Made by a program: the position numbers and the translations under genes. A stretch of 64,000 nt of DNA. Origin: Isurus oxyrinchus. Lineage: Eukaryota. Numbering within the stretch: the stretch's first letter is position 1; each line of letters opens with the position of its first letter. Location: assembly GCA_026770705.1 (NCBI GenBank), contig JANJGN010000007.1:109554001-109618000 (forward strand). The letters are read 5' to 3'. Under the pieces are notes generated by a model that did not search any database, was not told where the DNA came from, and saw only the letters and a list, made by a program, of their open reading frames with translations. Shown here one piece after another: positions 250 to 63,520 of the stretch.

Positions 250-1090
250 TTCATATTCGTACATGGGATGTGGGCATCGCTAGCTAGGCCAGCATTTATT
301 GCCCATCCTTAATTGCCCTTGAGAAGGTGGTGGTGAGCTGCCTACTTGAACCAATGCAGCCCATGTGGTGTAGTTACATTCATGGTACTGTTAGGGAGTG
401 AGTTCCAGGATTTTGACCCCAGTGATAGTGATGAAACGGTGATATAATTCCAAATCAGGATGGTATGTGGCTTAGAAGTGAACTTTCAGGTTATGATGCA
501 TCCATGCATCTGGTGCCCTTGTCCTTCTAGATGCCAGTTCTCGTGGGTTTGGATGGTGCTGTCTTAGGAGCCTTGGTAAGCTCCTGCAGCGCATCTTGTA
601 GATGGTACACACTGCTGCCACTGCGCGTCAGTGTTAGGGGAGGTGGATATTTGTGGAGGTGAGCCAGAAAAGTGGCTGCTTTGCCCAGGATGATGTCAAG
701 CTTCTTGAGCGTTGTTGGAGCTGCACTCATTCAGGCAAGTGGAGAGCATTCCATCACAATCCTGACGTGTGCTTTGTAGATAGACAGCTTTTGGGAGTCA
801 GGAGGTGAGTTACTCGCCACAGGATTCTTAGCCTCCGACCTGCTCTTGTAGCCACAGTATTTATATAGCTAGTCCTGTTCAGTTTCTGGTCAATGGTTAC
901 CCCCAGTATGTTGATAGTGGGGGATTCAGGGATGATTATGCCAGTGAATGTCAAGGGGCAATGATTAGATTCCTTGTTGTTGGAGATGGTCATTCCCTGG
1001 CACTTGTGTGGTTTGAATGTTACGTGCTACCTGCCAGCCCAAGCTGGGATATTGCCCAAGTCTTGCTGCATTTGCACATGGACTGCTTCT
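250..1090 (-). mobile_element. 5'-truncated LINE, family B (CR1/L2-group RT C-terminus and 3' tail)
   Basis: ORFs 754-993 and 527-730 (PTINILGVTIDQKLN..., MSAAPTTLKKLD) match other copies in the window. The tail reads AAGGGCAATTAAGGATGGGCAATAAATGCTGGCC on the minus strand. Confidence 0.85.
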
Positions 1091-1124
1091 TTGCAATCCA
1101 TGTCGAAATGCAATGCCCCAATGT

Positions 1125-1630
1125 CTGCAGTGTACCAGTGAAGCTTAACACAAAATCAAAGAACAGCACATTATCCTTCGATTTGGCATATTACTGATCT
1201 TTGGACTGTGCTGGACAATTTCAGACTTAATCTCTGCCACCTCGCCTATTGTGTCTACTTTTATTTTCAAGTTTCATTTTAACCTCGTTCATCTCTTTTT
1301 TGCTTTGAGATGGCAACTGTTCATTTTTCTGTGAGTTGCACGTCCTCTGGGCCGTTCTTCTGTTTCTGTGCTTGTTCCATTATTGGGCCCTTCGGCTATT
1401 CCCACCAATTGTTTTATTATTTGATGTCTGCCCTATCACAGACCTTCCCGTTTATTTTATTCACACGCCCTCATCTCCCCACCCATGCCCCCCACCCTCA
1501 CCTTAAAGGCATGTCTAATTGTTTCCTCGTTTTGACGAAAGGTTACCACCTGAACCTTTAATTCTGCTTTTTCTCTCCACAGAGAGTGCAAGGCCTGCTG
1601 AGTATTATCAGCGGTTTCTCTTTCTATTAT
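1125..1630 (+). mobile_element. Decayed Penelope-like element 3' part (continuation of 1-244)
   Basis: QCTSEA*HKIKEQHIILRFG matches the GIY-YIG C-terminus (HCSSEAQRKLEEQHLVFRLG). It is followed by a pyrimidine-rich UTR and the decayed terminal motif ...GCCTGCTGAGTATTATCAGC. Confidence 0.7.
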
Positions 1631-1954
1631 AGCAAAGATAATTATTTTCAAATCTACATGGATGGGCAAAGCCGAGCAGTCCTCCAATTGACACTCTTAA
1701 GTTTGATACTTTACTAATAATCCACAGCTACTATGAATTTAGGATAACATAGAGTCATAGAGTTATACAGCACAGAAACAGGCCATTCGGCCTATCGTGT
1801 CTGTGCCGGCCATCAAGATGTGCTGGTGGTGTTTATACTTGTGTATATTTATATCTACTACCCACGTTAACATTTGAACCATCTTGTACATGACTCCAGA
1901 GAGCGTGTTCGCTAAGCAGCGGAGGTTTCTGACCTATCCTTTATTCTTTCATCG

Positions 1955-2149
1955 AAAGTAGAATACTGCGAATGTTGTGAATCCGAAATCCGAACAGAAG
2001 ATCTTGGAAAACATTCAACAGGTCAGGCAGATTCTGAAATGTGGACTACAGAGCTGATGAATGGTCATTGATCCAAAACCTTAAGCTTTATTTTTCTCCC
2101 CGCAGATGCTGCCTGACCTGCTTATAGTTTCCCACCACTTTTGATATTG
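1955..2149. mobile_element. Old ~195-bp fold-back Penelope-terminus insertion
   Basis: Inverted arms (CAGGTCAGGCAG vs ATGCTGCCTGACCTG) and CTGATGA at 2054-2060. Degenerate 14-bp flanking repeat TTATTCTTTCATCG (1941-1954) / TTATCCCTTCAACG (2150-2163). Confidence 0.65.
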
Positions 2150-2544
2150 TTATCCCTTCAACGCTGCAACCAGAAATACCTCTCCACCTCCTAATGTTTT
2201 TCAGTCACTGTTAATATGCTGAGCTACTTTTTCAACAATCTGGAAGCAGGTATTCTGTTTGGCAGTGCCTCTCATATGATATCCCGAAAAATGATACGTG
2301 CCTCTGCCCACTGGCCTCGAGATGGTTGAAGTTGGACTTTTTAATATTGCATTCTTTGCAAACTAGATCCTTGATGGCTTCCAACGTTTATTTCTAATGT
2401 GTAAGACACTGTGACAGGAACAAATTGAATTAGTGACATCCCTAACAAAATTGTAGGTTCTTGACAAATGTCCAAATCAAACAAAATTCTGTCACTGAGG
2501 CATAAATGTACAAATTTGTGCTTTGCTTTTCGAACCCTGAGAAT

Positions 2545-2890
2545 GGGGGACATGGTAGCGCAGTAGTAATGGACCAGCTATTCAGAGGCACCGGCTGATG
2601 CTTTGGGAAGATAGACTCAAATTTCACCCAGGGCAGCTTGTGGAATTTAAATTTAACATAATAATAGTGACCAAACAACTATAATCGATTGTTGTAAAAA
2701 TCAACCGACTTCACTAACTCCCTTTGGGAAGAAAATCTGCCGTCTTACCCAATCTGCCCTACATGTGACTCAGCAACGAGGTTCTTAACTGCCCTCTGAA
2801 ATGGCCAGGAAAGCCACTCAGTTCAAGGGCAATTAGGGATGAGAAGCAAATGTTTGTCTTGCCAATGATGCCCACATCCCATAAAATAAT
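2545..2890 (+). mobile_element. tRNA-headed SINE sharing both ends with LINE family B
   Basis: A-box-like TAGCGCAGTAG at 2556-2566 and decayed B-box at ~2614-2625. The body matches the LINE 5' leader (33667-33812), and the tail from 2824 matches the LINE-B 3' end. Confidence 0.8.
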
Positions 2891-4019
2891 TTTTAAATGT
2901 TATGTTTTAGAAATTTCTCCAGAACATAACAGGTTTCTGAACTGATGTTAACAATGTTAGATGACTGCACCACATGAAAAATTACACTGTTAGGGGTGTA
3001 ACCAATGTCACCGAATTGAAACTGTCCGTTGTCAAATAAATAAAACGTGCAGAGTTTCAGCAAGTCCTGAACTGACCCGAAGAATTTAGTTTCACAGGTG
3101 TCAACATTAGAAATTATTTGCAACTGAATTATTAACTTTCTTTTAAGTATGGATACAATGTTGGGGCGATTAAGCAACATGAGACTCATTCTGCACAGCT
3201 GTATTTCTATTTTAGTCAACAACATGCAGAACTATAATTTGGGAGCCAATGCGATCAGTGTGGCCATGCATGAATAAATTACATCTACTGCAGGGATTTA
3301 ACCGAATGTAACTGTACTGAAATTCTGTGTGGACCAATAAATAAAACACCAAGAAATACATTCAACAAATATTTCTGCGGCTTGCTTTGCGTTTAATGTG
3401 TGATACAAAAATGGAGACAATGAAGATATATAAGCATCTTAAAAAGGATAGATTAAGTAATGAGGGCTGAATCATTGGTGAGATAGAAATGTTACGAAGG
3501 TAAAATGAATTCTGTTAAATCTAAATATCGTGTTACAATTACTCTGAAACATGGTGTTTGGTGATCGCCGTCATTCAACATGCAACGAGGATGCAGCTGA
3601 CAGAGCTAATGTAAAACTTTGAACAATTAGTGCTTTGAACTGAGGAACTGAGCTTTGTTGTTTACTTAGCTCCAAAAAGCTATACGCATGTATCAATATT
3701 TAGCAAAACATCTCGGACATCTAAAATAGACTGGTTAACATCTTGTTTGGTATCTGATATCTTTTCCGAACCCAGCATGGCTAGAGCGCCCAAATGTTCA
3801 AATTTTACACTGCTGCGTTATGTTTGAATATTTAATTATCAAAACACCTACACTATGTTCACTTAAATTTAATCTCGAAGCCAATGAATTGTTATTAAGT
3901 GAGAAAATAGAATGTGAAATAGATTGCAACATAATGATAGGTAAACAGTTGTACATTTACTTGCATCACGCCAACCTTTTAACCTTCGGCATTAAACTAC
4001 TAACCCCGACAGAAACTTG

Positions 4020-8030: not shown

Positions 8031-8267
8031 TATATTTATATATGCAATCGTAGAATCCGTTAATAAATAAGGCTTAACTGAGAATATTGGTGCGGCGGAT
8101 GATATAACCCGGTTTTACAAAACATCCGGTTGAATTGATCATTTAAATCTAAAGTTTCCCTTGATATTTCCCATGAGATTTCTGTGAACTATCTTCAAAC
8201 TGTACATGATATCTCTTTACGAATTCAATAGTTGTTTACTCTTCTTTTTGGATTCCAGTCGTCGTAC

Positions 8268-8579
8268 CTTGCTGAGGTTTAGAAACAGTGTAGGTGATAA
8301 CAGCTGGAGTCTTGAGAGAAACATGAGATACCGAACATATGTAATTGGCGTAGCTCGGGACAGGTTTCGTCTCAATCAAAGAGCTGGAAACTTCATATAG
8401 CCCCCCGCTGTTCTGCACTTTACTGGTATGTATGCCGAAAGCAGTCTCAATGCCATTTTTATACCAAGTGAGGGTGAAATTGTCTGGATAAAACGCAGCC
8501 GTTTCACAGACTAGAGTCAGAGACGCAGATGAATTCCATTCAGATATCCTGGAGACAATCCTCAGTGGGGTTGGGGCAG
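8268..8579 (-). CDS. Gene A exon 3: Ig C1-set domain
   Basis: tctctgtcccgcAG acceptor, G|GTACGA donor, 312 nt open, phase 1-1. Translates AAPTPLRIVSRISEWNSSASLTLVCETAAFYPDNFTLTWYKNGIETAFGIHTSKVQNSGGLYEVSSSLIETKPVPSYANYICSVSHVSLKTPAVITYTVSKPQQ, with C1 hallmarks C-x4-FYP, W and Y-x-C-x-V-x-H. Confidence 0.92.
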
Positions 8580-9546
8580 CTGCGGGACAGAGAATGAACA
8601 GCGTCGAGTTACTGTGCGCTATTGGGAGGAATTAAATATGTTTCTGATTTATGTTCAGTCCATTTTCTTATAAACTTCCCTTTCGAAAGCACAGCTCCTG
8701 TCCTTTTAATGTTACACATATTCTATACACACCTCATCTATATCTCTCATAAAGATCGACATCTCGGCAATTTTATCTGTGCTATTAATGCCAACGCTTT
8801 GAATTATTCGGCAGAAAAGTCGGAATGATTTGGTTGTCATAGTCCAAAGAATTAAGCAAAAATATCCTGGGAGCAAGTTGGCTAGCTGACTCCTTACGTG
8901 TTTGATACGCACAGACAGTGACGAACAATAGACACAATCTTGATAAAATGAAGCGCTTAATCGGTACGGGAATAACTCACAGCTGAAGCATAACAACTGG
9001 TAAAATGCATCAGATTCAGTTGACCCTCAGTAGGTTTCAGCAACACAGACACTTTTTAGACGTTAGTGAGGCGAATTGGGTGCTTGGAACTCCAATTTGT
9101 TGAATGAATCACCTTCTCAACAATTAGCTGCACACTGGCATTCAAATCTGCAACGCGATCATTATGCGAGATTTAATTTCAGGAATATTAAACCGCCAGG
9201 GCAGCGATAGGGGCAGAGATTGGATCAAGAATGAGCAAGAACAATATACATATTGGGAGACACGTATTAACATAAAGGGTTTTCATTCAGTTATATTCTT
9301 GGAAGCTGTTCCGACTTCCTAATATCATTAATTTGGTGTGTAGATTGCCATTATAGTTGCAGTCTAATTCATTAATATTGATTCATTTGGCAGTACTCTA
9401 CGTGTGACATTGCAGGTCTAAATACCAATTCTATATAGGGAACATTATCGCGTGTAGAAGTAGGCGTGTTTACACTGGCCAAAACGGTGCGATAAAACAG
9501 TATGAAACGATCCCGGTGTGTTATGTTCAACGTATTTGAAACTTAC

Positions 9547-9864
9547 CGTGGACAATTAGATGTGATCCTGTCCCATTTCCTCGAATTACTCCCCGATGGT
9601 TCACGGAGCAGTGATAGATTCCAGAGTCTTGGAATGTGGCGTCCAGTAACTGAAAGAAACCGCTCACTTTACTTGCCATACCAAACGTTCTCTTGTCTGG
9701 GCTTTTGTGCAGGTATTCATTCACACCATGTTTCCACCATAAGACCCGTACCCAGGCTTGGTCTTGAAGAATGGGGAATACACAGTAGAATGTGATGTTC
9801 CCACCTCTGAGCACCGTCGCTTTTTGTGGTGCTTGAGACACACTGATCGAAGTTTGGCCCTCAG
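9547..9864 (-). CDS. Gene A exon 2: Ig V-set domain with germline J-like G-strand (NKp30/SIRP/VJC1-like)
   Basis: tttttatgacAG acceptor, G|GTAAGT donor, 318 nt, phase 1-1. Contains the B-strand Cys (TFYC), C-strand WW, D-x-G-x-Y-x-C (DSGIYHC) and the diglycine bulge GNGTG. Confidence 0.93.
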
Positions 9865-10035
9865 CTGTCATAAAAATATAGTCAAATACAGGTTAAAAGC
9901 ATTAGCTAAGGCATGAAGGTGGAAGGGGGAAAACATAATCTGGATAGAGGAAATACGGTTCGTTAAATTAATATGAAAACTATTTCGGAGGCAGTTTATG
10001 AATTAGAGTAACTGGGCAAATGAATAAACTGGTAC

Positions 10036-29560: not shown

Positions 29561-29971
29561 TAATTAAATATAACTTACGCTTCAATATCTCTCATCGTAT
29601 TTTTTAATCTGCAGCCCAATCGCTTCAATAAAGCGACTGTTAGCGATTATTCAAAATAATTTAAAATAGTGCAAACATTTTAAAAAGCAGAAATGTACCT
29701 GAGGTTCGCATTAATTCAGGATATTGATGATCCAAAATATTCTTGCTTTTCTCCAAACATATTTCCAATTATTTACAAAATTATCCCATTTAAAATCACC
29801 TTTTATATAATTAAATGCGAATCAGTCTCATTTCACTTTCGCTCTCCACTACAATCACAATTACAAAGTCTGACCCATAACCGCTGTCACTCCTCATCTC
29901 GGCATTGATGCTATACAACGTGTTGTGAGGCAGTCCTGTTTCATTCATCCCCTCCCTACAATCCCACTTAC

Positions 29972-30289
29972 CATGCACAAAGAGTGGGGACCCGGTCCCG
30001 TTTCCAAACACTATGTTATGAATTGTTACCTTGCAGAGATAGATTCCAGCATCATCCACACTTACATCGACGAGCTGGAAAGAGCCGCTCTCCTTTTTTG
30101 TGCGAAACTCTTTTCTCCAGTTTGATCCTGGTCGCAGCAGTGTGCTGTCGCCACCTTTCTACCAGTAAACATTTACTTCTGGGATATTTTGGAAGAGAGG
30201 AAAAGTGCAATAAAAGGTAACGGCTCGGCCTTTGATGGCGGTCACACGTTCAGGGACTTGCTGCACTTGAACAGATGCATCTAGAACAG
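29972..30289 (-). pseudogene. Gene B Ig VJ-type V exon with premature stop
   Basis: cttccAG acceptor, G|GTAAGT donor, 318 nt as in gene A. Translates AVLDASVQVQQVPERVTAIKGRAVTFYCTFPLFQNIPEVNVYW*KGG...DAGIYLCKVTIHNIVFGNGTGSPLFVH. TAG at 30159-30161. Confidence 0.92.
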
Positions 30290-41090: not shown

Positions 41091-43858
41091 TTTTGTGGCA
41101 ATAACAGAGACCTGGCTCAAGGAAGGGCAGAACTGAATGTTAAATATTCCCAGGGAAAACGTGTTCAGAAGAGATAGGAAAGGAAGGGACGGAGTGGTGG
41201 AGGGGGGGGGGGGGGCGGGTATCTCGTGGCATTGGTTAAGGAGAGCATTGCAGTGCTAGTGAAAGAGAATTCCCCAGAGGGTTCAAGGACAGTATTAACT
41301 TGTCTAGAGCTGAGGAACAAAAAGGGTGCAATTACATTGCTCGGTGGAGTCAATAGACCACCAAATAGTGAGAAGGATGTAGAAGAACAAATCTGCAGGG
41401 AAATTACAGAGCGATGCAAGTATTATAGAGTATTTATAATGGTGGACTTTAATTACCTGAATGTAGACTGGGACAGTGGTAGCGTAAAGGTTGGAGAGGG
41501 TCAAAAGTTCCTAGATTGTATTCAGGAGAATTTTCTACAACAGTATGTGTCCAATCCATCAAAAAAGATGCACTGTTGGACCTTGTTCTTAGACATGAGA
41601 TGGGCCAAGTAAGTCAAGTGTCATTGGAGGAACATTTAGGAGATAATGATCATTGTATTGTACATTTTAGGGTGATGAAAGAAAAGGGTGATAGGCAATC
41701 CAGAATAAGAATACTTAACTGCTCAAGAGCCGACTTTGATGGGGCAAGAACAGAGCTGGGCCAGGTAGACTGGAATGAAAGAGTGGCAGGAAAAACTATA
41801 GTTGAATAATGGGCTACCTTCAAAAACAAATTTGTTCTAGGACAGTCAAGGTACATTTGAAAGGGGAAAGTAGGGCAAACAAATCCAGACCTCCCTGGAT
41901 GAAAAAGGAGATTGAAATTAAGATAAAGAAGAAAAGTGTACTTATGATAGGTGTCAGGTAGAAAATACAATTGAGGACCAAGAGGAATATAGAAGGTTCA
42001 GAGGGGAGGTGAAAAACATATTAGAGAAGCAAAGAGGGAGATGAGAAAAGACTGGTAACCAATATAAAGGGGAATCCAAAAGTCTTCAATAAGCATATAA
42101 ATAAGAAAAGGGTGGTAAAAGGAGGAGTGGGGCCGATTAGGGACCTAAAAGGGAATTTACACATGGGTGAAGGGAACATGGCTGCGGTATTAAATGAATA
42201 GTTTGCATCCATATTTACTAAGGAGGTAGATGTTACCCAGGCCTTGGTGACAGATGAAGAAACTCTGTCAGGAGAAAGGTTCAAAATTGACAAGGAGGAA
42301 GTATTGAATAGACTATCAGTACTTAAAGTTGACAAGGCACCAGGACCCAATGAGATGCCTCCAAGAGTATTGAAGGAAGTTGGAGTAGAAATTTCAGGGG
42401 CACTGGGCATAATCTTTCAATCTTCCCGAAACTTGGGGGTCGTGCCAGAGGATTGGAGAATTGCAAACATTATGTCCTTGTTCAAAATAGCTTGTCAGGA
42501 TAAGCCCAGCAATTACAGACCAGTCAGTTTAATTTTAGTCATAGGCAAGTTTCTAGAAACAATCAGGATAGAATTAATTGTCACATAGAAACACATGGGT
42601 TGATAAGGTAGAGCCAGCACAGGCTTCTAAAGGGGAAATCGTGTTTAACTAACTTGCTGGAGATTTTTGAAGAGGTAACAGGAAAGGTCGATGAGGGTAA
42701 GGTTGTTGATGTACTGTACATGGATTTTCAAAAGGCATTTGACACCATGTCACACAACAAACTTGTGAGAAATTTACTGCTCATCGAACAAAAGGTACAG
42801 TAGCAAAGTGGATACAAAATAGGCTGAAAAATAGGAAGCAGAGAGTAATGATCAACGTATATTTTTTGGGCTGGAGGAAGGTTAGTAGTGGAGTTCCCCA
42901 GGGTTCAGTATTGGGGCCCTTCCTTTTCCTGATATATATTATTGATCTAGATCTTGATGTGCAGGGGACAATTTCAGAGTTTGCAGCTAAAATGAAGCTT
43001 GGGAGTGTTGTGAACTGCGAGGAGGACAGTGTAGAACTTCAAAAGGACATAGACAAGTTAGTGGAGTGGGCAGATAGGTGGCAGATGAAGTTCAATGTGG
43101 AGAAGTGTGAAGTGATGCATCTTGGTATGCAGAACATGGACAGGCAATTTAAAATAAGGAGTGAAATTTTGAAGGGGGTGCAGGAGCAGAAAGGCTTGGG
43201 TGTGTGTGTGTATAGATCATTGAAGGTGGCAGGGCAGGTGGAGAGAACAGTAAATAAAGCATATAGTATCCTAGGCTTTATTAATAGGGCATTGAGTACA
43301 AGAACAGGGAGGTTATGTTGCATTTATATAAGACACTCATTAGACCTCAGCAGGAATATTGTGTACAGTTCTGGGCGCCACGTTATAGGAAGGATGTGAA
43401 CACATTGGAGAGAGTGCAGAACAGATTCACAAGAATGGTCCCAGGGATAAGAAACTGCAACTATGAGGATAGATTGGACAGCTTGGGACTGTTCCCGTTG
43501 GTTGAAGAAGGCTAAGAGGGGATTTGATAGAGTTGTTCAAAATCATGAGGGGGCTGGACAGAGTAAATAGGTAGAAGCTGTCCCTGCTTGTAACAGGATC
43601 AAGAACTAGAGGGCACAGAGAAAAAGCCTTTCAAACAACGCGTGGTTCGGGACTGGAATGCACTGTCAGGAAGTGTAATGGAGGCGGGTTCAATCGAGGC
43701 ATTCAAAAGGGAATTAGATGATTATTTGAATAGAAATAATGTGCAAAGGCGTGGGGAAAAGGCAGAACAATGATACTAGGTCACAATGCGCATTCGGAGA
43801 GCCGGTGCAGACACGATGGGCCGAATGGCCTCCTTCCGTGACGGTACAATTCTGTGTA
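41091..43858 (+). mobile_element. CR1 LINE, nearly complete ORF2 (APE + RT) with stops and frameshifts
   Basis: VAITETWLK start, DFNY, DKAPGP, NYRPVSL, MDFQKAFD, GVPQGSVLGP. Tail GGGCCGAATGGCCTCCTTC at ~43818. Confidence 0.93.
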
Positions 43859-44995
43859 CTTAACATGAAAAGGGGCGGTCAGATGAATGGGTCAGCTGTA
43901 ACCCTTTAATGTTCCTTCCCTGAGGACAAGCTATGTTTGCGCATTCATTGATGTACATTATGCAGCAATCGACTTGCACCAAGCAGGACAGCAGTACAGG
44001 GAGTTTAAAGAGGACGGTCTTGGTCTCAGATTTTGTAATCAATAGCAAAGCAAAGGCCTTTGACCCACCACCAACCCCCCCCCCCCCCCCCCCCCCCCCA
44101 AAGCTGGGAGAGCGAGTAACCTCTTTGAAGAGTAATTCGTCACTTAGACGTGCAATTGATTGTCGCTCTGTTTTGCGAAGCTGCAGTGATGACATCATGC
44201 CACTCAAGCAACGAATCACGTTAAAGGATTTCACAGCCAACCTGTCCGGAAGTGAAACGCACTAATAAAGCATTTTTTAAACATTTTGTACAGAGTGAAT
44301 AAAGATTAGGCTATACACATGGGGTTAAGATAAAAACTAAACAACATGAAAAAAAATATATTTTTTTAAATCAACAACTAAACATAAGTGAGAAATTTAA
44401 CATTACAGCTTTTTTCGGGGCTGGATCGGTTTTTCAGGAGTTAATGCACAGGTTGTCATTTTAAAAAAACATTTACATGTCACTGAAAAGGGTTTAACTT
44501 CAAAACAAAAACAGAATTACCTGGAAAAACTCAGCAGGTCTGGCAGCATCGGCGGAGAAGAAAAGAGTTGACGTTTCGAGTCCTCATGATCCTTCGACAG
44601 AACTTGATTTCGAGTCCAAGAAAGAGTTGAAATATAAGCTGGTTTAAGGTGTGTGTGTGGGGGGGCGGAGAGAGAGAGAGAGACAGAGGTGCTTGTGTAG
44701 ACAAACAAGCAGTGATAGAAGCAGATCATCAAAAGATGTCAGTGACAATGTTACAAAAGAACACATAGGTGTTAAAATTAAAGTTGGTGATGTTATCTAA
44801 ACGAATGTGCTAATTAAGAATGACTGGTAGGGCACTCAAGGTACAGCTCTAGTGGGGGTGGGGGGAGCATAAAAGATTTTAAAATATTTAAAAATAATGG
44901 AAATAGGTGGGAAAAGAAAAATCTATAAAATTTATAGGGAAAAAAAGGGGGAAAAAAAGGGGGAAACAGAAAGGGGGTGGGATGGGGGAGGGAGC

Positions 44996-45922
44996 TCACG
45001 ACCTAAAGTTATTGAATTCAATATTCAGACCGGAAGGCTGTAAGGTGCCTAGTCGGAAGATGAGGTGTTGTTCCTCCAGTTTGCGTTGGGCTTCACTGGA
45101 ACAATGCAGTAAGCCAAGGACAGACATGTGGGCAAGAGAGCAGGGTGGAGTGTTAAAATGGCAAGCGACAGGGAGGTTTGGGTCATTCTTGCGGACAGAC
45201 CGCAGGTGTTCTGCAAAGCGGTCGCCCAGTTTACGTTTGGTCTCTCCAATGTAGAGGAGACCACATTGGGAGCAACGAATGCAGTAGACTAAGTTGGGGG
45301 AAATGCAAGTGAAATGCTGCTTCACTTGAAAGGAGTGTTTGGGCCCTTGGACGGTGAGGAGAGAGGAAGTGAAGGGGCAGGTGTTACATCTTTTGCGTGG
45401 GCATGGGGTGGTGCCATAGGAGGGGGTTGAGGAGTAGGGGGTGATGGAGGAGTGGACCAGGGTGTCCCGGAGGGAGCGATCCCTACGGAATGCCGATAAG
45501 GGGGGTGAAGGAAAGATGTGTTTGGTGGTGGCATCATGCTGGAGTTGGCGGAAATGGCGGAGGATGATCCTTTGAATGCGGAGGCTGGTGGGGTGATAAG
45601 TGAGGACAAGGGGGACCCTATCATGTTTCTGGGAGGGAGGAGAAGGCGTGAGGGCGGATGCGCGGGAGATGGGCCGGACACGGTTGAGGGCCCTGTCAAC
45701 GACCGTCGGTGGAAAACCTCGGTTAAGGAAGAAGGAGGACATGTCAGAGGAACGGTTTTTGAAGGTAGCATCATCGGAACAGATGCGACGAAGGCGAAGG
45801 AACTGGGAGAATGGGATGGAGTCCTTACAGGAAGCGGGGTGTGAGGAGCTGTAGTCGAGGTAGCTGTGGGAGTCGGTGGGTTTGTAATGGATATTGGTGG
45901 ACAGTCTATCACCAGAGATTGA
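44996..45922 (-). CDS. Penelope-like polyprotein C-terminal fragment (RT thumb + GIY-YIG endonuclease), left arm
   Basis: Open frame SISGDRLSTNIHYKPTDSHSYL...CPRKRCNTC...NLVYCIRCSQCGLLYIGETKRKLGDRFAEH...LEEQHLIFRLGTLQPSGLN. The RT catalytic core is absent. Confidence 0.88.
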   Translation of the reverse strand, partial: SISGDRLSTNIHYKPTDSHSYLDYSSSHPASCKDSIPFSQFLRLRRICSDDATFKNRSSDMSSFFLNRGFPPTVVDRALNRVRPISRASALTPSPPSQKHDRVPLVLTYHPTSLRIQRIILRHFRQLQHDATTKHIFPSPPLSAFRRDRSLRDTLVHSSITPYSSTPSYGTTPCPRKRCNTCPFTSSLLTVQGPKHSFQVKQHFTCISPNLVYCIRCSQCGLLYIGETKRKLGDRFAEHLRSVRKNDPNLPVACHFNTPPCSLAHMSVLGLLHCSSEAQRKLEEQHLIFRLGTLQPSGLNIEFNNFRS

Positions 45923-45925
45923 AAT

Positions 45926-46852
45926 TCAATCTCTGGTGATAGACTGTCCACCAATATCCATTACAAACCCACCGACTCCCACAGCTACCTCGACTACAGC
46001 TCCTCACACCCCGCTTCCTGTAAGGACTCCATCCCATTCTCCCAGTTCCTTCGCCTTCGTCGCATCTGTTCCGATGATGCTACCTTCAAAAACCGTTCCT
46101 CTGACATGTCCTCCTTCTTCCTTAACCGAGGTTTTCCACCGACGGTCGTTGACAGGGCCCTCAACCGTGTCCGGCCCATCTCCCGCGCATCCGCCCTCAC
46201 GCCTTCTCCTCCCTCCCAGAAACATGATAGGGTCCCCCTTGTCCTCACTTATCACCCCACCAGCCTCCGCATTCAAAGGATCATCCTCCGCCATTTCCGC
46301 CAACTCCAGCATGATGCCACCACCAAACACATCTTTCCTTCACCCCCCTTATCGGCATTCCGTAGGGATCGCTCCCTCCGGGACACCCTGGTCCACTCCT
46401 CCATCACCCCCTACTCCTCAACCCCCTCCTATGGCACCACCCCATGCCCACGCAAAAGATGTAACACCTGCCCCTTCACTTCCTCTCTCCTCACCGTCCA
46501 AGGGCCCAAACACTCCTTTCAAGTGAAGCAGCATTTCACTTGCATTTCCCCCAACTTAGTCTACTGCATTCGTTGCTCCCAATGTGGTCTCCTCTACATT
46601 GGAGAGACCAAACGTAAACTGGGCGACCGCTTTGCAGAACACCTGCGGTCTGTCCGCAAGAATGACCCAAACCTCCCTGTCGCTTGCCATTTTAACACTC
46701 CACCCTGCTCTCTTGCCCACATGTCTGTCCTTGCCTTACTGCATTGTTCCAGTGAAGCCCAACGCAAACTGGAGGAACAACACCTCGTCTTCCGACTAGG
46801 CACCTTACAGCCTTCCGGTCTGAATATTGAATTCAATAACTTTAGGTCGTGA
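45926..46852 (+). CDS. Penelope-like polyprotein C-terminal fragment (RT thumb + GIY-YIG endonuclease), right arm
   Basis: Same as the left arm except G/A and I/V substitutions near the C-terminus. Confidence 0.88.
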   Translation, partial: SISGDRLSTNIHYKPTDSHSYLDYSSSHPASCKDSIPFSQFLRLRRICSDDATFKNRSSDMSSFFLNRGFPPTVVDRALNRVRPISRASALTPSPPSQKHDRVPLVLTYHPTSLRIQRIILRHFRQLQHDATTKHIFPSPPLSAFRRDRSLRDTLVHSSITPYSSTPSYGTTPCPRKRCNTCPFTSSLLTVQGPKHSFQVKQHFTCISPNLVYCIRCSQCGLLYIGETKRKLGDRFAEHLRSVRKNDPNLPVACHFNTPPCSLAHMSVLALLHCSSEAQRKLEEQHLVFRLGTLQPSGLNIEFNNFRS

Positions 46853-47260
46853 GCTCCCTCCCCCATCCCCACCCCCTTTCTGTTTCCCCCTTTTTTTCCC
46901 CCTTTTTTCCCTATAAATTTTATAGATTTTTCTTTTCCCACCTATTTCCATTATTTTTAAATATTTTAAAATCTTTTATGCTCCCCCCACCCCCACTAGA
47001 GCTGTACCTTGAGTGCCCTACCAGTCATTCTTAATTAGCACATTCGTTTAGATAATATCACCAACTTTAATTTTAACACCTATGTGTTCTTTTGTACCAT
47101 TGTCACTGACATCTTTTGATGATCTGCTTCTATCACTGCTTGTTTGTCTACACAAGCACCTCTGTCTCTCTCTCTCTCTCCGCCCCCCCTCCCCCCCCCC
47201 CCCCCACACACACACACCTTAAACCAGCTTATATTTCAACTCTTTCTTGGACTCGAAATC

Positions 47261-47300
47261 AAGTTCTGTCGAAGGGTCATGAGGACTCGAAACGTCAACT
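47261..47300 (+). ncRNA. Minimal type-I hammerhead-ribozyme-like motif (variant core) in the Penelope terminus
   Basis: AGTT-CTGTCGA-A-GGGTC(ATGAG)GACTC-GAAAC-GTC-AACT: helix I AGTT/AACT, helix II GGGTC/GACTC, palindromic ACGT in place of helix III. Mirror copy at 44566-44605. Confidence 0.6.
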
Positions 47301-48734
47301 CTTTTCTTCTCCGCCGATGCTGCCAGACCTGCTGAGTTTTTCCAGGTAATTGTTTTTGTTTTGGATTTCCAGCATCCGCAGTTTTCTTTGTTTTTATCTC
47401 AGGGTTTAACTTCATGTAGGTTTTCTCAAAGATTTATGAGAACAGAAAAGTGGAAGTTCTCGCCAGGTTAATTCATTTCCCTAACTGTTAGTTCTGGGAG
47501 GGGGAGGATTGGGAAAATGTCCATAGTGCTATTGTGCAGTCTGTGGTGGAGCAGTGAATGACAGGTCACAACTTTAGGGCTTACACATCTTTCTGCGCTT
47601 GTGCTAAATCCTGGAGTCGCGGTTAGATTCAGAGGAATGATAACGCCGAGTGTTAATTATCAAAGCCCCTCCAAATTCCAGGCCCTTGAATTTCCTCCAT
47701 AGTTGCACTCACATGAGTACCGAGCCGCAAACTGATTATGCAAGTTAAGAGATCACGGAAATTTGAACTTAAATAAGTTAGATACATAACTACAGTATAC
47801 ACAAAAACTCTTGACCCTTTACGATCATCTATCAATCCCTCCACCCAAAAGCATCGCTAAGCAGAAAACTGGCCTTGACCCCACAAAAAGACTCAGAAGG
47901 GTTTCCTGAAATTCTGCTTGCTTCGAGACTCTTGTGAAATTATGACCTGATTTCAGGTGTGGGAGTCAATAAAGCCATTTTATTCCAATTTTTAATTCCT
48001 TTTAACTTATCCTCACTGAGAGCTGCCCAATTTCTGTTTCTTTTAATGCGTTTTTATAGCATAAGTCACGTTAAAAAGTGAAAGGTATCCGTGATCGTAG
48101 ATTCGTAAAAATGTTCTGTCTAATATCCATGAATGAATTGAAACGTTAGCTTCTATATTTCAAGTAGTATATTATGTTATTCTTGTGATTCCCTTTGGGG
48201 AATTTATTTCCTCTAATTTATCTCCAGTTTTATGCTGATAATAGTCTGGTGAGATTGGCAGGGAATTCGAACAGAAATTAATATTGGTTGCATGAGCACA
48301 GTAATGGGCAGCTTTACAAGGCTGACTTTGGGTTGCACTCAGTAAAAATTGCATGTCTCTGAATCTTCCCAATTTTAAAGTGTCAATGAAGTGTCAGGTA
48401 GGGCGAAAGGGTGACATTGAGGGTCAGGCTTATAGGAAATGAGGAGGGTTTTAATATGTCGTATTTGCTGAGTGGATGTTTTGTGTTGATGTTTCTTTGC
48501 AGGGTTGCTTCTTGTTTTAATCAGTAGTCTAACTTTTTGTGTGGCGGAGGTCCTGATTATATACGTGACCTTAGAATTTTTATGTATGGGGTTTGAATTT
48601 TCTTTGTGATATGGGCTTACTTTATTCCATTGGACTGCAGATTTTTTTACCCCGGCTCCAGGAGGTTGGACATCCTTTTTTAAGTTGACTCAACCGTGTT
48701 GTTGCATTTATATTGAGGGATGATAGGTGACTTA

Positions 48735-51284: not shown

Positions 51285-51401
51285 CTGTAGCATGTGTGAG
51301 CAGGGAAAGTTACAGCAAGGCTCTTCAACTAATCAGATTGAAGAATGTTCACTGCTAAACTTGCAAAGCTACAGGGATAGAGTGGAGAAAAATTGGAACT
51401 A

Positions 51402-51638
51402 AAACAAAAATACTTGGAAAAACTCAGCAGGTCTGACAGCATCTGCAGAGTGAGATACAATTGACATTTTGAGAGCATATGACCCTTCATCAGAGTTTTC
51501 ATCTCTCTGATGAAGGGTCACATGGACTCGAAACATCAACTGTATCCCTCTCTGCAGATGCTGTCAGACCTGCTGAGTTTTTCCAGGTATTTTTGCTTTT
51601 GTTCTAGATTTCCAGCATCTGCAATATTTTGCTTTTAT
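51402..51638. mobile_element. ~237-bp fold-back Penelope-terminus insertion with two opposed hammerhead-like cores
   Basis: Inverted arms. CTGATGA-A-GGGTC(ACATG)GACTC-GAAAC at 51507-51534 and a mirror core at 51487-51493. Flanks GAAAAATTGGAACTA (51387-51401) / GAAAAATTTGAACTA (51639-51653). Confidence 0.85.
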
Positions 51639-53344
51639 GAAAAATTTGAACTAATTGGATTGCTCTATGGAGAGCCGGCACACACTGAAGAGGCCTAACT
51701 GTCTCAGTTAGTGCCATAATTGAGACATAGCAAAGCTTGTGGAAGGGCAAAGCAACTTGGTTCAGCAACGCCTGGATTTTCATGTTTATCTGCACATATG
51801 TAGACTCCAGAAGTTGCTGTTCAATTTACTCCACAATAGCAGGAACTGCTGTGAGCTTCACCATCAATCTTCATGTAATATTCAGTCCAGTGTCTACAGC
51901 CAGCCTGCATTATGTTAAAAATGTTTGGTTAACATCTCAGAGAATGTAATGAAGTTTGCCACAGAGAAAACGAGACATAAATGTCACCTGCAATGGTTAT
52001 TGATGGGATTGTGCTGGGCAGGCAGTGTGTGTCTGCAGAGTAACACCTGTGACACACACACTTTGCTTTGTCAAGGGCAGGGTTATTCTTTGCAGAATCT
52101 GGCAGGAATTTCCAGCCCTGTTGGCGTCAGGCATCATGGCAGGTGGGGGAGGAACAATATGGTGAGAAGGCCAAAAATCAGTTTTATGTCATCATGAAAC
52201 CAGTTTGCAATCTTCCGCTCCACCCGTCAATGATGGGCCATATTTCACGTCACTGGACATCAGGAATGTAATTTCAATACATTTGCATCTAATTATAAGC
52301 CCCACTCACTGGAAACATCCCCCCACTTCAAATTTACTGCCCACGTAGGTGGGACTTCAGAATGGCATGTTTCATGACTGCCTTTAAAAAGCGTGCTCCT
52401 GGCGACCTGAACTTCTGCCCATTGGATATCAAGGGTGAGGCACTGCACATTCGCAGGGGGCACAGGCAAGTTGTTTTGTCCTGTCTGCCTTTCAATGCAG
52501 TGCCAGGGCAAGTGCTCCAGTGCGAGCAAGACTTGGGGGGAATGGGGTGAGGGATGGGGTTTGGTGCAAAGCAGCACAGGCAGGCCGCAGGAAAGACTCA
52601 AGTACGTGCCAGGGGAGTGTGGGGAGATAAAGGAAGGAAGTGGCCATGCACTTGAGAAAGCTTGTCAAAAGTGAGCATTCTTCTGCAGCTGAGAGCATTC
52701 AGCACCTCCACCAGTGATTGTGTCATGTCCACCTTTCACAAGAGGATACTACAATATTCCCAGTTGGCCAATTACTCTGCTGCTCCATTGATATGCTTCG
52801 TGTTGAGCCTCTGAAGCTTCTCTGCCCACTAAAGCAACACAAAATCATGAAAGTACCACCAAATGCTCTGAAGCTTTGCACCCCTCGGGTGCAGACTGCA
52901 AATTAATGTATATTTTAGGGGGCAGGAGAGTAATTGGCTGACTGGGAATATTGTAGTATCCCCTTGCAAAAGGTGGACATGACGCAACCACTGGTCAGGG
53001 TGCTCACATCCCATTGCAGTGCCTTTATTAAGGTTTGGACCAGCATCCATTATGGCTCAAGCCAACAGTGCAGCCTTGAAGTGCAGGCTAGTGGAATGCC
53101 TGCACCTGAGCTGAGAGTACAGCATGCAGTCCAGTAGCTGAAGCTGCCACCAATTTGTCAAGTGGAGTGGGGCGGGGGTTGGTGCCATTTCGGGAAGCTA
53201 TGAAGAGCACTATACACAGGCCACCCAAGTGCTGGCCAGCACTCTCCTGCATGTGAGAAGGGGCCTTCAGAATTAACCATGAAAGGTTACTTAGTACACC
53301 CCATCCATGCTAACCCATGCATCTCTCTCTTTGATCCTGCATGA

Positions 53345-54450
53345 TCATGGAGCCTGGTGATTTAGCAGAATGCCTCCTGGTTTACAGAAACCAGAAAAGA
53401 AGAAGAAGAGAGCAGAGGAGATGCCTGGCTCAGCGAAGGGGAATCAAGATGAAGGGGCAGCAGGGTCTGCTGCACACACACTCACAGGTGCCTCGCTAGA
53501 CACAGGGTCTATAGATGGCGCCTGTCATTCCTGCAGATGGCTGAAAACCAGTGTCACCAAAGATGGCACTTGTCTTGGGAACTGATTGGTCACATACGCC
53601 ACCTGCTGCAGGATATGGCATCACGGAGATATGGAGGGCATCCACTGTCAGTGACCATGATTTTTATACCAGTGGCTCCATCCAGGGCTCCAGAGGTGAC
53701 CTGAGCAGGATCTTGCAAGCCTCCACACAGAAGTGTATCCAGGAGATCACGGAAGCGATCTTCGCAAAGGCACAGAACTCTATGCATTTTGCCCTTGGTC
53801 AAGAAATCCAGGATGCCAGGGCGCTGGGGTTTGCACTGATCTCATGTTTCCCACAGGTGCAGGGTGCCATCCACTGCACTCATGTGATGCTTTGATCTCT
53901 GTGGCAAAAAGCAGTCAACTACGTCAAAAGTAAATGCTCCCACTCGCTCAATGCTCAGCTGGTGCATGACCACCACAAACACATCCTGCAGATCTGCACA
54001 CATTTCCCAGGGACCATCCAGGACTCCTACATCCTTAACCGGTCTCAGATCCCTGACATCTTCCAGGGTCCAGAGAGGCTGCAGGGTTGGTTCCTCCGGG
54101 GCAAGGGCTACCCACAGAGGATGTGGCTGATGATGCCCATGCGGTGGCCCAGACTGCAGCAGAGCAACAGTACAATGAGGATTATGCCACAGCCCGGACT
54201 TTGGTGGAGCAAACGATTGGGATTTTGAAATTGAGGTTCCACTGCCTCGACAGGTCTGGTGGAGCACTGCAATACAGCCCCAAGGTGGCTCCACAACCTG
54301 GCGCTGCAACAGGGAAGGGACCTGGTTGAGGAGGAAATGGAGGAGTTACACATATCCTCCAGTGAGGAGGACATCAAAGGGGATGATGGTGATGAGGTCC
54401 TTAAAGATGGGGATGCCAGTGATGAGACCTTCACACTGGCCAGATGAGGC
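53345..54450 (+). pseudogene. Harbinger (HARBI1-like) DDE transposase, disabled
   Basis: FYTSGSIQG...FPQVQGAIHCTHV...SLNAQLV...FPGTIQDSYIL...WFLRGKGYP...YNEDYATARTLVEQTIGILKLRF across frameshifts. The Asp of GAIDCTH and of GDKGY are lost. Confidence 0.88.
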
Positions 54451-62239: not shown

Positions 62240-63520
62240 TGAGTCATACCTAGTACAAAGGAAGATGGTTGTCGTTGTTGGAGGTCAATCATCTCAGTTC
62301 CAGGACATCATTGCAGGACGTCCTCAGGGTAGTGTCCTGGGATCAATCATCTTCAGCTGCTTCATCAATGACCTTCCTTCCATCATAAGGTCAAAAATGG
62401 GGATGTTTGCTGATGATTGTACAACGTTCAGCAGCACTCACAACTCTTCAGGTACTGAAGCAGTCCATGTCCAAATACAGCAAGACTTGGACAATATTCA
62501 GGCTTGCGCTGATGAGTGGCAAGTAACATTTGTGTTACACAAGTGCCAGGCAATGGCCATCTTTAACAAGAGAGACCTAAACATTGCCCCTTGAGAGTCA
62601 ATGGCATTACCATCACTGAATCCTCCAATGTCAACACCCTGTGGGTTACCAATGACCATAAGCTGAACTGGACTAGCCATATAAATACTGTGACTACAAG
62701 AGCACATTAGAGGCTAGGAATCCTGCAGTGAGTAACTCACCTCTTGACTCCTCAAAGTGAGTCCAATTTCTACAAGGCATAAGTCAGGAGTGTGATGGAA
62801 TACTCCCTGCTTGCCTGGATGAGTGCAGCTCGAACAACACTCAAGAAGCTTGACACCATCCAGGACAATGCAGCCCGCTTGATCAGCACTCTATACATTA
62901 ATATAAAAACAAAAAACTGCGGATGCTGGAAATCCAAAACAAAAACAGAATTACCTGGAAAAACTCAGCAGGTCTGGCAGCATCGGCGGAGAAGAAAAAG
63001 TCTTGGAAAAGTCTTGGACTCGAACTCAAGTTCTGTCGAAGGGTCATGAGGACTCGAAACATCAACTCTTTTCTTCTCTGCCGATGCTGCCAGACCTGCT
63101 GAGTTTTTCCAGGTAATTCTGTTTTTGTACTCTATACATTAACATTTACTCTCTCCACCAATGGCACAAGGTGGCAGCAGCATGCACCATTTACAAGATA
63201 CAATGCAGGAACTCACCGAGCACCTTCTAAATCCATGACCACCATGATATAGAAGGACAGGGGCAACAGACACATGGGAATACCACACCTTGAATCTCCC
63301 CTCCAAACCACATACCATCCTGACTTTGAAATACTTCACCATTCCTTCATTATTGCTGGGTCAAAATCCTGGACACCCCTATCCAACAGGACTGTGGGTG
63401 TACCTACATCACATGGACTGCAGCAGTTCAAGAAGACAGCTCACCATCATCTTCTCAGGTCCAATTAGAGATGGGCAATATATACTGGCCTAGTCAGTAA
63501 TGCCCACATTCTATGAATTA
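62240..63520 (+). mobile_element. LINE family B 3' fragment, interrupted by a fold-back insertion
   Basis: PQGSVLGSIIFSCFINDL...MFADDCT (ORF 62265-62594). Tail at ~63455-63520. Confidence 0.9.
62902..63128. mobile_element. 227-bp fold-back Penelope-terminus insertion (same young family as 44503-47400)
   Basis: Inverted arms nearly identical to the ends of the large palindrome. Exact 14-bp target-site duplication ACTCTATACATTAA at 62888-62901 and 63129-63142. Confidence 0.92.

Follow-up and report, generated by a model that had tools for sequence, protein, structure and literature searches.

A 2.9-kb palindrome from one Penelope-like insertion, and the case for reverse transcription primed at both cut ends

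Structure of the locus

The window (the whole stretch of DNA analysed, 64,000 nucleotides from Isurus oxyrinchus, here organism A) carries a 2.9-kb palindrome which is a real, recent and single Penelope-type insertion, and a largely ordinary one. Self-BLAST matches 44501-47363 to its own reverse complement with 98.1% identity over 2885 columns, and a repeat search of the window returns inverted arms at 44648-45923 and 45925-47200 with a spacing of 1 nt; both searches bear out the ~1.42-kb inverted arms recorded in the first-pass annotation. The left, untailed arm (44503-45922, minus strand) is a 5'-truncated Penelope-like copy comprising the C-terminal part of the ORF, the 3' UTR and a pseudo-LTR, and the right, tailed arm (45926-47361, plus strand) is the inverted copy, cut short at the identical position of the element. 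The arms are 5 substitutions and 4 indels apart (two 1-nt homopolymer indels, one of 18 nt in a C/CA tract and one of 2 nt), with arm-specific differences present on both, and all 10 of their non-majority bases are held in common.

An open 308-aa C-terminal ORF fragment lacking the reverse transcriptase (RT) catalytic core occupies 45926-46852 on the plus strand (mirrored at 44996-45922 on the minus strand) and matches residues 611-918 of a full-length copy found elsewhere (L034) with 99% identity. Both arms are truncated at residue 611 of the 918-aa protein, 3' of the RT catalytic motifs, in agreement with the single shared truncation position proposed earlier. A GIY-YIG endonuclease motif region lies at 46556-46660 on the plus strand (PF01541, 22.0 bits, slightly below the cut-off of 22.6). 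A CxxC stands ahead of it and two His come after it (CNTC ... EH ... CHF in the translation), an arrangement which we take to be of the CCHH zinc-finger type, its spacing having been judged by eye. The full-length copy gives 31.3 bits with RVT_1 (cut-off 29.6) and 20 bits with GIY-YIG (under the cut-off of 22.6), and many homologues carry PF00078 and some PF01541. On these domain matches the family is classed as an RT plus GIY-YIG (EN+) Penelope-like element (PLE). It is very abundant: one of its 31-mers has at least 20,385 matches.

The 3' pseudo-LTR (47213-47361, plus strand; mirror 44503-44653) recurs before the ORF in the full-length copy, where one ~165-nt sequence stands both 5' of the ORF and at the 3' end; partial tandems occur in L122, L148, L157, L172 and L173. 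Within it, at 47266-47296 on the plus strand (mirror 44570-44600), a pattern match locates a minimal hammerhead-like motif, CTGTCGA...GAAACGTC. Against the consensus hammerhead core CTGANGA, the motif has U in place of A6. No Rfam match to a hammerhead was obtained at E<=5; the other Rfam matches were a weak one to a snoRNA and below-threshold ones to miRNA hairpins, the latter caused by the palindrome. No host exons were detected near the palindrome among the scanned ORFs of >=100 aa; no host function is indicated, and the locus appears to be a passenger. The idea that read-through transcription would yield silencing dsRNA has already been published for Drosophila Penelope, according to the available text of PMC3681739.

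The unit is enclosed by one exact 14-bp target-site duplication, the 14-mer AGGGTTTAACTTCA, which occurs in the window at 44489 and 47401 only (copies 44489-44502 and 47401-47414, plus strand). A 39-nt tail (47362-47400, plus strand) is present at the right end of the unit alone, where the annotation had put some 40 nt. The left duplication ends in CA, 2 nt which pair with the element at its untailed start, and the first 2 nt of the tail are also identical to the end of the left duplication. Contigs assembled from short reads of organism A cross the left junction at 44110-44523 (X1 with 0 differences, X2 with 2) and the right junction at 47380-47596 (X2, 0 differences), so at its outer junctions the unit is not a fold-back read artefact, as had been argued. 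The empty site was found in a related organism (organism B), in which contigs X5 and X7, from two studies, join 44488 directly to 47401 and hold one copy of the 14-mer. The domains, the single duplication and the empty site all agree with the original reading of one Penelope-like insertion with inverted arms.

The centre had been described as a single nucleotide. This holds for the geometric centre at 45924, but the joint itself is most likely AAT (45923-45925), three bases foreign to the element. The base preceding TCAATC is C in 110/110 copies that were not selected for T, and the window has T; the element arms therefore most likely end at 45922 and 45926, and the apparent 1-nt centre arises because the outer two bases of AAT happen to pair. 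On this comparison of copies, both arms of the assembled centre most likely stop at one and the same base, with 3 untemplated nucleotides between them. If the joint were instead blunt, with a 1-nt centre and native bases throughout, its source would have had to carry T, found in 0/110 unselected copies; this reading is disfavoured, though it keeps an appreciable minority chance. The truncation position seemed at first to be a hotspot, with 5 matches set against 117 "T-variant" copies. The proper denominator is at least 20,385, a control position had 37 matches and the T's of L042 derive from its partner arm, and the hotspot was rejected. Overall, truncation points are not significantly clustered (42 vs 35.8 pairs, p=0.17).

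Survey of head-to-head units in the genome

Head-to-head arrangements were found at 40 of 90 sampled loci, in samples biased to long copies and with arm starts taken as BLAST ends, accurate to a few nt. In all 74 classifiable units (45 of 64 junction rows in a first set and 29 of 40 in a second) one end, and one only, is tailed, an outcome for which independent ends would give p of about 4e-26. Copies with a single arm (n=50) end untailed in 28 cases and tailed in 15, with 7 unclear; since such copies use either end, both are genuine first-strand start sites. These sites are sharply fixed in U-rich tracts, at map medians 3544 and 3583 with interquartile ranges of 5-6 nt. Of 66 determinations of the target-site duplication, 65 fall at 12-16 bp and 33 at exactly 14 bp. 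The outer ends share 0-2 nt of microhomology in most of 38 units, too little to discriminate.

Either arm may be the longer. Among the 73 units other than the palindrome, 40 have the longer arm at the untailed end and 33 at the tailed end, with no bias (p=0.48); in 34 the untailed arm leads by >25 nt. A tendency for a leading untailed RT to run further, suggested by the first set (28:17), was reversed in the second (13:16) and disappeared on pooling; likewise a spacer periodicity near 145/270 nt, hinted at by the first 20 loci, was gone in larger samples. Nearly equal arms are in excess: ends within 25 nt of each other were seen in 4/40 units of the first set against 1.05 expected (p=0.02) and in 6/29 of the second against 0.88, a value reached by 0 of 20,000 permutations. 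Such units go in both directions and include 2-nt blunt joints. As 11 of the 73 other units have arm ends <=25 nt apart, the palindrome is not unusual in the family, and some palindromic units survive to 5-8% arm divergence.

Partner arms belong to one template lineage, with 52 rare variants in common against 1.5 expected (30 units), of which units 18 are not above their best control; the nearest sequence is the partner arm in only 20 of 34 units. One source locus or gene conversion could, against twin priming, also explain shared rare variants.

Origin of the palindrome

The palindrome is best explained as one young Penelope-like insertion made by twin priming at both cut ends, a reading to which we give a probability of roughly 60%. 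The enzymatic steps, the copying of both arms from a single RNA molecule and the reason why they stop together are inferred as follows. After a 14-nt staggered cut, each DNA end would prime reverse transcription on the same RNA, one cDNA beginning at the tailed start site and the other at the untailed one. Both would halt at the same base, either because the RNA was broken there or because both stalled, and would then be linked head to head by some three untemplated bases. Since the start sites lie 39 nt apart, the same stretch would be copied twice, giving a palindrome. Priming of the kind described for L1 is likely here, with indirect support from the fixed start sites, the one-tail rule and the shared variants. 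In addition, the available text of PMC11167929 describes an Anolis Poseidon protein which in vitro cleaves both strands and extends each of them, begins at two sites on either side of the tail and, by prediction, forms a dimer.

In the mechanism of the first-pass annotation, a tail-bearing cDNA snaps back at its 3' end, is copied towards the target and is joined 39 nt short of the start. At this locus the shared truncation base is in its favour, as are the size of the 3-nt insert, which equals the smallest hairpin loop, and a 4-bp inverted match that occurs naturally at the joint (TTGA...TCAA, 10-nt loop), as it does at ~9% of positions; however, about four particular bases would have had to be added without a template, or a 10-nt loop to have been lost afterwards. 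Snap-back junctions are known for R2 insertions (available text of PMC11371274), and fold-back-like overlaps of 2-4 nt occur in L196, L204 and L270, near-symmetric units with the longer arm tailed, so that snap-back might account for some of the near-symmetric units. Yet a longer untailed arm accompanies near-symmetric joints in L041, L185, L275, L277 and L280, and those of L279 and L280 have 2-nt loops without pairing. A fold-back copy can never be longer than the tail-bearing first strand, and the 40 units with a longer untailed arm therefore do not come from snap-back, which fails as a general mechanism. In L035, moreover, the tailed arm lacks map positions 1038-3347 while its partner has 2115-3549, and 28 single-arm copies have the untailed end as their first-strand start. 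For the palindrome itself snap-back is judged unlikely, although it is the strongest of the rivals.

Much less probable is the self-priming of an antisense transcript, the rotifer Penelope model, in which the RNA folds into a hairpin, serves as primer for its own copying and is then integrated. It is a published account of head-to-head palindromic junctions (PMC3846280, in the text available) and predicts arms from one template. Yet it predicts asymmetry in one direction, and this misfits the two-way asymmetry of the present family; it also predicts a foldable loop, whereas 2-nt unpaired joints exist, and the priming seen in vitro is by cut DNA on sense RNA (PMC11167929, available text).

Two independent insertions, or a later inverted duplication of a single-arm copy at the DNA level (replication fold-back or repair), might be entertained in so abundant a family, but are largely refuted, and highly improbable, given the single duplication round the whole unit, the clean empty site, the unduplicated flanking DNA, the one-tail rule and the 17 to 1 excess of head-to-head over tail-to-tail pairs among the first 100 matches listed. 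An assembly or fold-back read artefact, of the whole unit or of its centre, is equally improbable: contig support covers the outer junctions and not the whole unit or the centre, but those junctions are held by short-read contigs in opposite element orientation, each arm carries its own differences and comparable joints exist at other loci.

Comparison with known systems

In L1 twin priming, reportedly described by Ostertag and Kazazian in 2001, both target ends are said to start cDNA synthesis on a single RNA, which leaves an inversion within one duplication, with an internal second primer and parts that do not overlap. The present units resemble it in the inversion inside one duplication and in the proposed two-ended priming on one RNA; they differ in that the starts lie only 39 nt apart.

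The head-to-head layout is itself already published for PLEs. In EN+ elements an inverted 5'-truncated copy, a tail and a target-site duplication are described for Adineta vaga Pen2/Pen2a (available text of PMC3846280) and as a general layout (PMC8557442). Pen2/Pen2a share head-to-head inverted copies, palindromes at the inverted junction, the duplication, a 30-40-nt tail at one end, RT followed by GIY-YIG, and pseudo-LTRs. The inverted part, however, is 1.4 kb and reaches into the ORF here, as against a ~200-bp pseudo-LTR there, the duplication is 14 bp instead of 8-10 bp, and tens of thousands of copies make statistics possible, unlike in Adineta. Poseidon_Ac of Anolis carolinensis, as far as the available text of PMC11167929 goes, is similar in having a pseudo-LTR before the ORF, two RT starts bracketing the tail and AT-rich targets; its pseudo-LTR contains a hammerhead motif, to which the hammerhead-like motif here may correspond, and both strands are cut and extended, as is proposed here. 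Its start sites lie in an AC-rich stem-loop whereas ours lie in U-rich tracts, and in that text inverted insertions are not derived from the two-strand activity. The 5' junctions of R2/PRINT insertions formed by snap-back likewise carry element sequence in antisense orientation, but their ends are variable (PMC11371274, available text), whereas in the present family a fixed start site marks the end of the second arm, which frequently exceeds the other in length.

Significance

The origin of PLE inverted copies and of their one-sided tail has been called unresolved (PMC8557442; available text of PMC11167929). The literature searched, with few subscription papers and without the PLE reviews of 2005-2006, held no proposal of two-ended priming for PLE inversions and no description of the present family. 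The locus is valuable mainly as an entry to a large natural data set on these copies and their tail. The one-tail rule in 74/74 units, the two-way asymmetry, the excess of near-equal arms and the 14-bp duplications speak for reverse transcription primed at either end of the cut, and the counts yield predictions for the existing in vitro system.

On the sequence comparisons above, slightly better than an even chance is given to the wider proposal that PLEs integrate by symmetric twin target-primed reverse transcription, in which a dimer would make a ~14-nt staggered cut, the tail would be the offset between start sites and a shared stop would give rise to a separate class of kilobase palindromes with almost no spacer, forming ~15% of head-to-head units. 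If true, this would explain the tail, the inversion and the target-site duplication together. Kilobase palindromes with spacers of 2-23 nt are recurrent in this genome and able to persist, and the family would then be a genome-wide source of long palindromes.

The palindrome as a single insertion

The window sequence 44501-47363 matches its own reverse complement at 98.1% identity by self-BLAST, and in a repeat search the complementary arms of the unit (44489-47414) lie 1 nt apart. By global alignment the arms differ by five substitutions and four indels: one of 18 nt in a C/CA tract, one of 2 nt, and single nucleotides at two homopolymers. Their mutual distance is 0.35%; the closest of the other copies lies 1.04% away. 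Within the window the 14-mer AGGGTTTAACTTCA occurs only at positions 44489 and 47401. The tail, put at about 40 nt by the first-pass annotation, is confined to the right arm and measures 39 nt (47362-47400).

Junctions were compared with contigs from four of 24 listed runs, of the same organism (organism A) and a related one (organism B); none of these contigs extends across the whole unit. In organism A the left junction is crossed by an X1 contig (44110-44523, 0 differences) and an X2 contig (44110-44522, 2 differences). An X2 contig also crosses the right junction (47380-47596, 0 differences). X1 and X2 are a single sample, possibly the individual assembled. Two studies of organism B each supply one contig (X5 and X7) that joins 44488 directly to 47401. 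This is an empty site with one 14-mer, and therefore the entire unit is one insertion, present in organism A and absent from two organism B samples. The self-match, the single 14-mer pair and the empty site thus bear out the earlier description of fold-back inverted arms of one Penelope-like element (PLE) insertion, and the crossed outer junctions, with the empty site, uphold for those outer ends its view that this is not a read artefact. PMC8557442 and PMC3846280 describe as typical of PLEs a 5'-truncated copy placed in inverted orientation at the 5' end, a tail of 30-40 nt on one end and a target-site duplication (TSD). The window unit shares all three; its layout is not unusual, and the palindrome is a real, young and ordinary representative of it.

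The element family

An arm-derived 31-mer has at least 20,385 exact matches in the 4.98-Gb assembly. Among named homologues a Chiloscyllium protein comes closest (68%), so a cartilaginous fish is the likely host; the family likely belongs to the Poseidon clade. L034, a full-length copy elsewhere in the genome, has a tailed pseudo-LTR, then an open frame of 926 codons (RVT_1 over cut-off, GIY-YIG slightly under), then the 3' UTR and another pseudo-LTR. Each window arm holds an open frame of ~308 aa with a GIY-YIG match near threshold; the fragment corresponds to L034 residues 611-918 (99%), without the RT catalytic core. Head-to-tail arrays with a period of ~3.33-3.35 kb were seen at G000:C1 ~460,864-468,486 and 12,157,055-12,167,951.

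A pattern search placed a minimal hammerhead-like motif inside the pseudo-LTR at 47266-47296; an Rfam search returned no hammerhead match. Such motifs are known from PLE pseudo-LTRs, as PMC4209133 describes. The young subfamily (this motif and L034) has U at core position 6 (CTGTCGA), yet is actively spreading. This would fit dispensable cleavage, which PMC11167929 reports for the PAc element in vitro. Several short arms (L120, L127, L273, L034, L035 and others) begin at positions 3444-3456 of the family map, on the 5' boundary of the motif or slightly within it, possibly marking a structure-related stop.

Genomic neighbourhood

Directly upstream of the palindrome lies a LINE (41178-43399) in which fragments of endonuclease and RT were seen. 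No function of the palindrome for the host is indicated. The 58 frames scanned come from the 67 frames of at least 100 aa in the window, leaving out the palindrome and an earlier-scanned LINE frame, and short exons would escape such a scan. They gave transposon domains, including a DDE_Tnp_4 transposase fragment (53896-54225) that is presumably Harbinger-like, and one weak proline-rich match. They also include Ig exons, of the C1-set and V-set types, on the minus strand at 8-10 kb and 30 kb (8239-8631, 9530-9892 and 29814-30158), at least 14 kb from the palindrome. We take the translations of these exons to resemble NKp30/NCR3-type V and V-C1 receptors, suggesting that they may be part of an immune-receptor cluster.

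Short head-to-head stubs, with arms of ~100-135 nt and from this family or a related one, lie at two further places in the window: 62888-63142 (14-bp duplication at 62888 and 63129) and ~51396-51642. The latter is older (77-80% to the map) and has a canonical CTGATGA hammerhead core. Many such joints occur in contigs of both organisms. siRNAs from inverted Penelope copies are reported for Drosophila in PMC3681739, so the idea that the palindrome could give dsRNA is not new.

Ends and arm lengths across the family

Sampling covered 20 of the best 41 matches, then 89 of the 100 matches listed for a 117-match pattern plus one further locus; the 11 listed matches left out were six duplicates of earlier loci, two partner arms and three from one tandem. 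Head-to-head units were found at 40 of these 90 loci. Set 2 consisted of 39 loci picked as minus-then-plus neighbours among the matches listed, and both sets are biased towards long copies. One tailed and one untailed end were seen in 45 of the 64 junction rows of set 1 (the window and three short stubs counted) and in 29 of the 40 rows of set 2. The remainder of set 1 had an unclassifiable end (16) or was scored tail/tail (3, in all of which one arm continues into a partial tandem), and 11 rows of set 2 were unclassifiable. Clean units with two tails or with none were absent from the 64 and 40 rows. Single-arm copies (n=50) ended untailed in 28 cases, tailed in 15 and unclear in 7, and both end sites are fixed within a few bases. 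A TSD was called in 66 of 74 units, 65 being 12-16 bp and 33 exactly 14 bp.

Of 73 units, the window's own left out, 40 had the untailed arm as the longer one and 33 the tailed arm, with excesses above 25 nt in 34 and 28. Arm starts lay within 25 nt of each other in 4/40 units (1.05 expected, p=0.02), with no significant enrichment at 70 or 300 nt in the same test, and in 6/29 units of the independent set 2 (0.88 expected). Partner arms of 30 units had 52 rare variants in common against 1.5 expected, only 12 units exceeding their own best control; the nearest sequence was the partner arm in 20/34 units.

The central joint

A truncation hotspot at the centre of the palindrome is rejected on a control position and the true copy number, and a blunt 1-nt joint made of native bases is disfavoured. 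C precedes TCAATC in 110/110 copies not selected for T, and therefore the element-derived arms most likely share one end point in the element (45922 and 45926). The central AAT is most likely a 3-nt insert whose outer bases pair by chance. The single-nucleotide centre annotated earlier thus stands as geometric spacing in the assembly and probably not as the structure of the joint.

Loop lengths at the other near-symmetric joints are 2, 2, 6, 7, 7, 9, 10, 10, 13, 15, 19 and 23 nt. L196, L204 and L270 combine a short overlap with a longer tailed arm, the untailed arm is longer at L041, L185, L275, L277 and L280, and L279 and L280 have blunt 2-nt joints. The arms have diverged by 5.4% at L196 and 7.6% at L185, hence near-symmetric palindromes are able to persist. 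Extra upstream element fragments occur in central joints or arms at L258, L267 (map 276-1294 between arm starts 1424 and 1434), L293, L189 and L035, which suggests that the template was switched while the arms were being joined or shortly beforehand.

Origin of the palindrome

We favour, at a probability of about 0.6, twin priming at a staggered cut. Each target end would prime reverse transcription on the same RNA, from one of two start sites, and near-equal arms would arise where both cDNAs were halted by a shared stop, for example a broken RNA end; on this reading the excess of near-equal arms requires such a stop. Each arm is antisense as read from the adjoining target 3' end, and two-ended priming accounts for this orientation and for the TSD, as well as for the one-tail rule and for length asymmetry in both directions. 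It agrees with PMC11167929, where PAc in vitro cuts both strands and extends them, starting at two sites that bracket the tail. No published proposal of it for PLEs was found in a literature search that covered mainly journals free of subscription.

Snap-back, proposed by the first-pass annotation, in which the tailed first strand folds back and is copied, is known for R2 (PMC11371274) but is not supported here as the general mechanism: the tailed arm should never be the shorter, because a fold-back copy cannot hold sequence absent from its template, and 40 of the 73 units violate this. The palindrome locus itself is compatible with it, having equal arm ends, three inserted bases and a naturally occurring 4-bp inverted match of a kind present at ~9% of positions, though snap-back is much less probable than twin priming; part of the near-symmetric class may have been made in this way. 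Self-priming of an antisense transcript, as in PMC3846280, is very improbable, since it predicts one-directional asymmetry against the two-way 40:33 observed.

For the mechanism by which inverted PLE copies arise, the family-wide counts on kilobase arms provide modest evidence.
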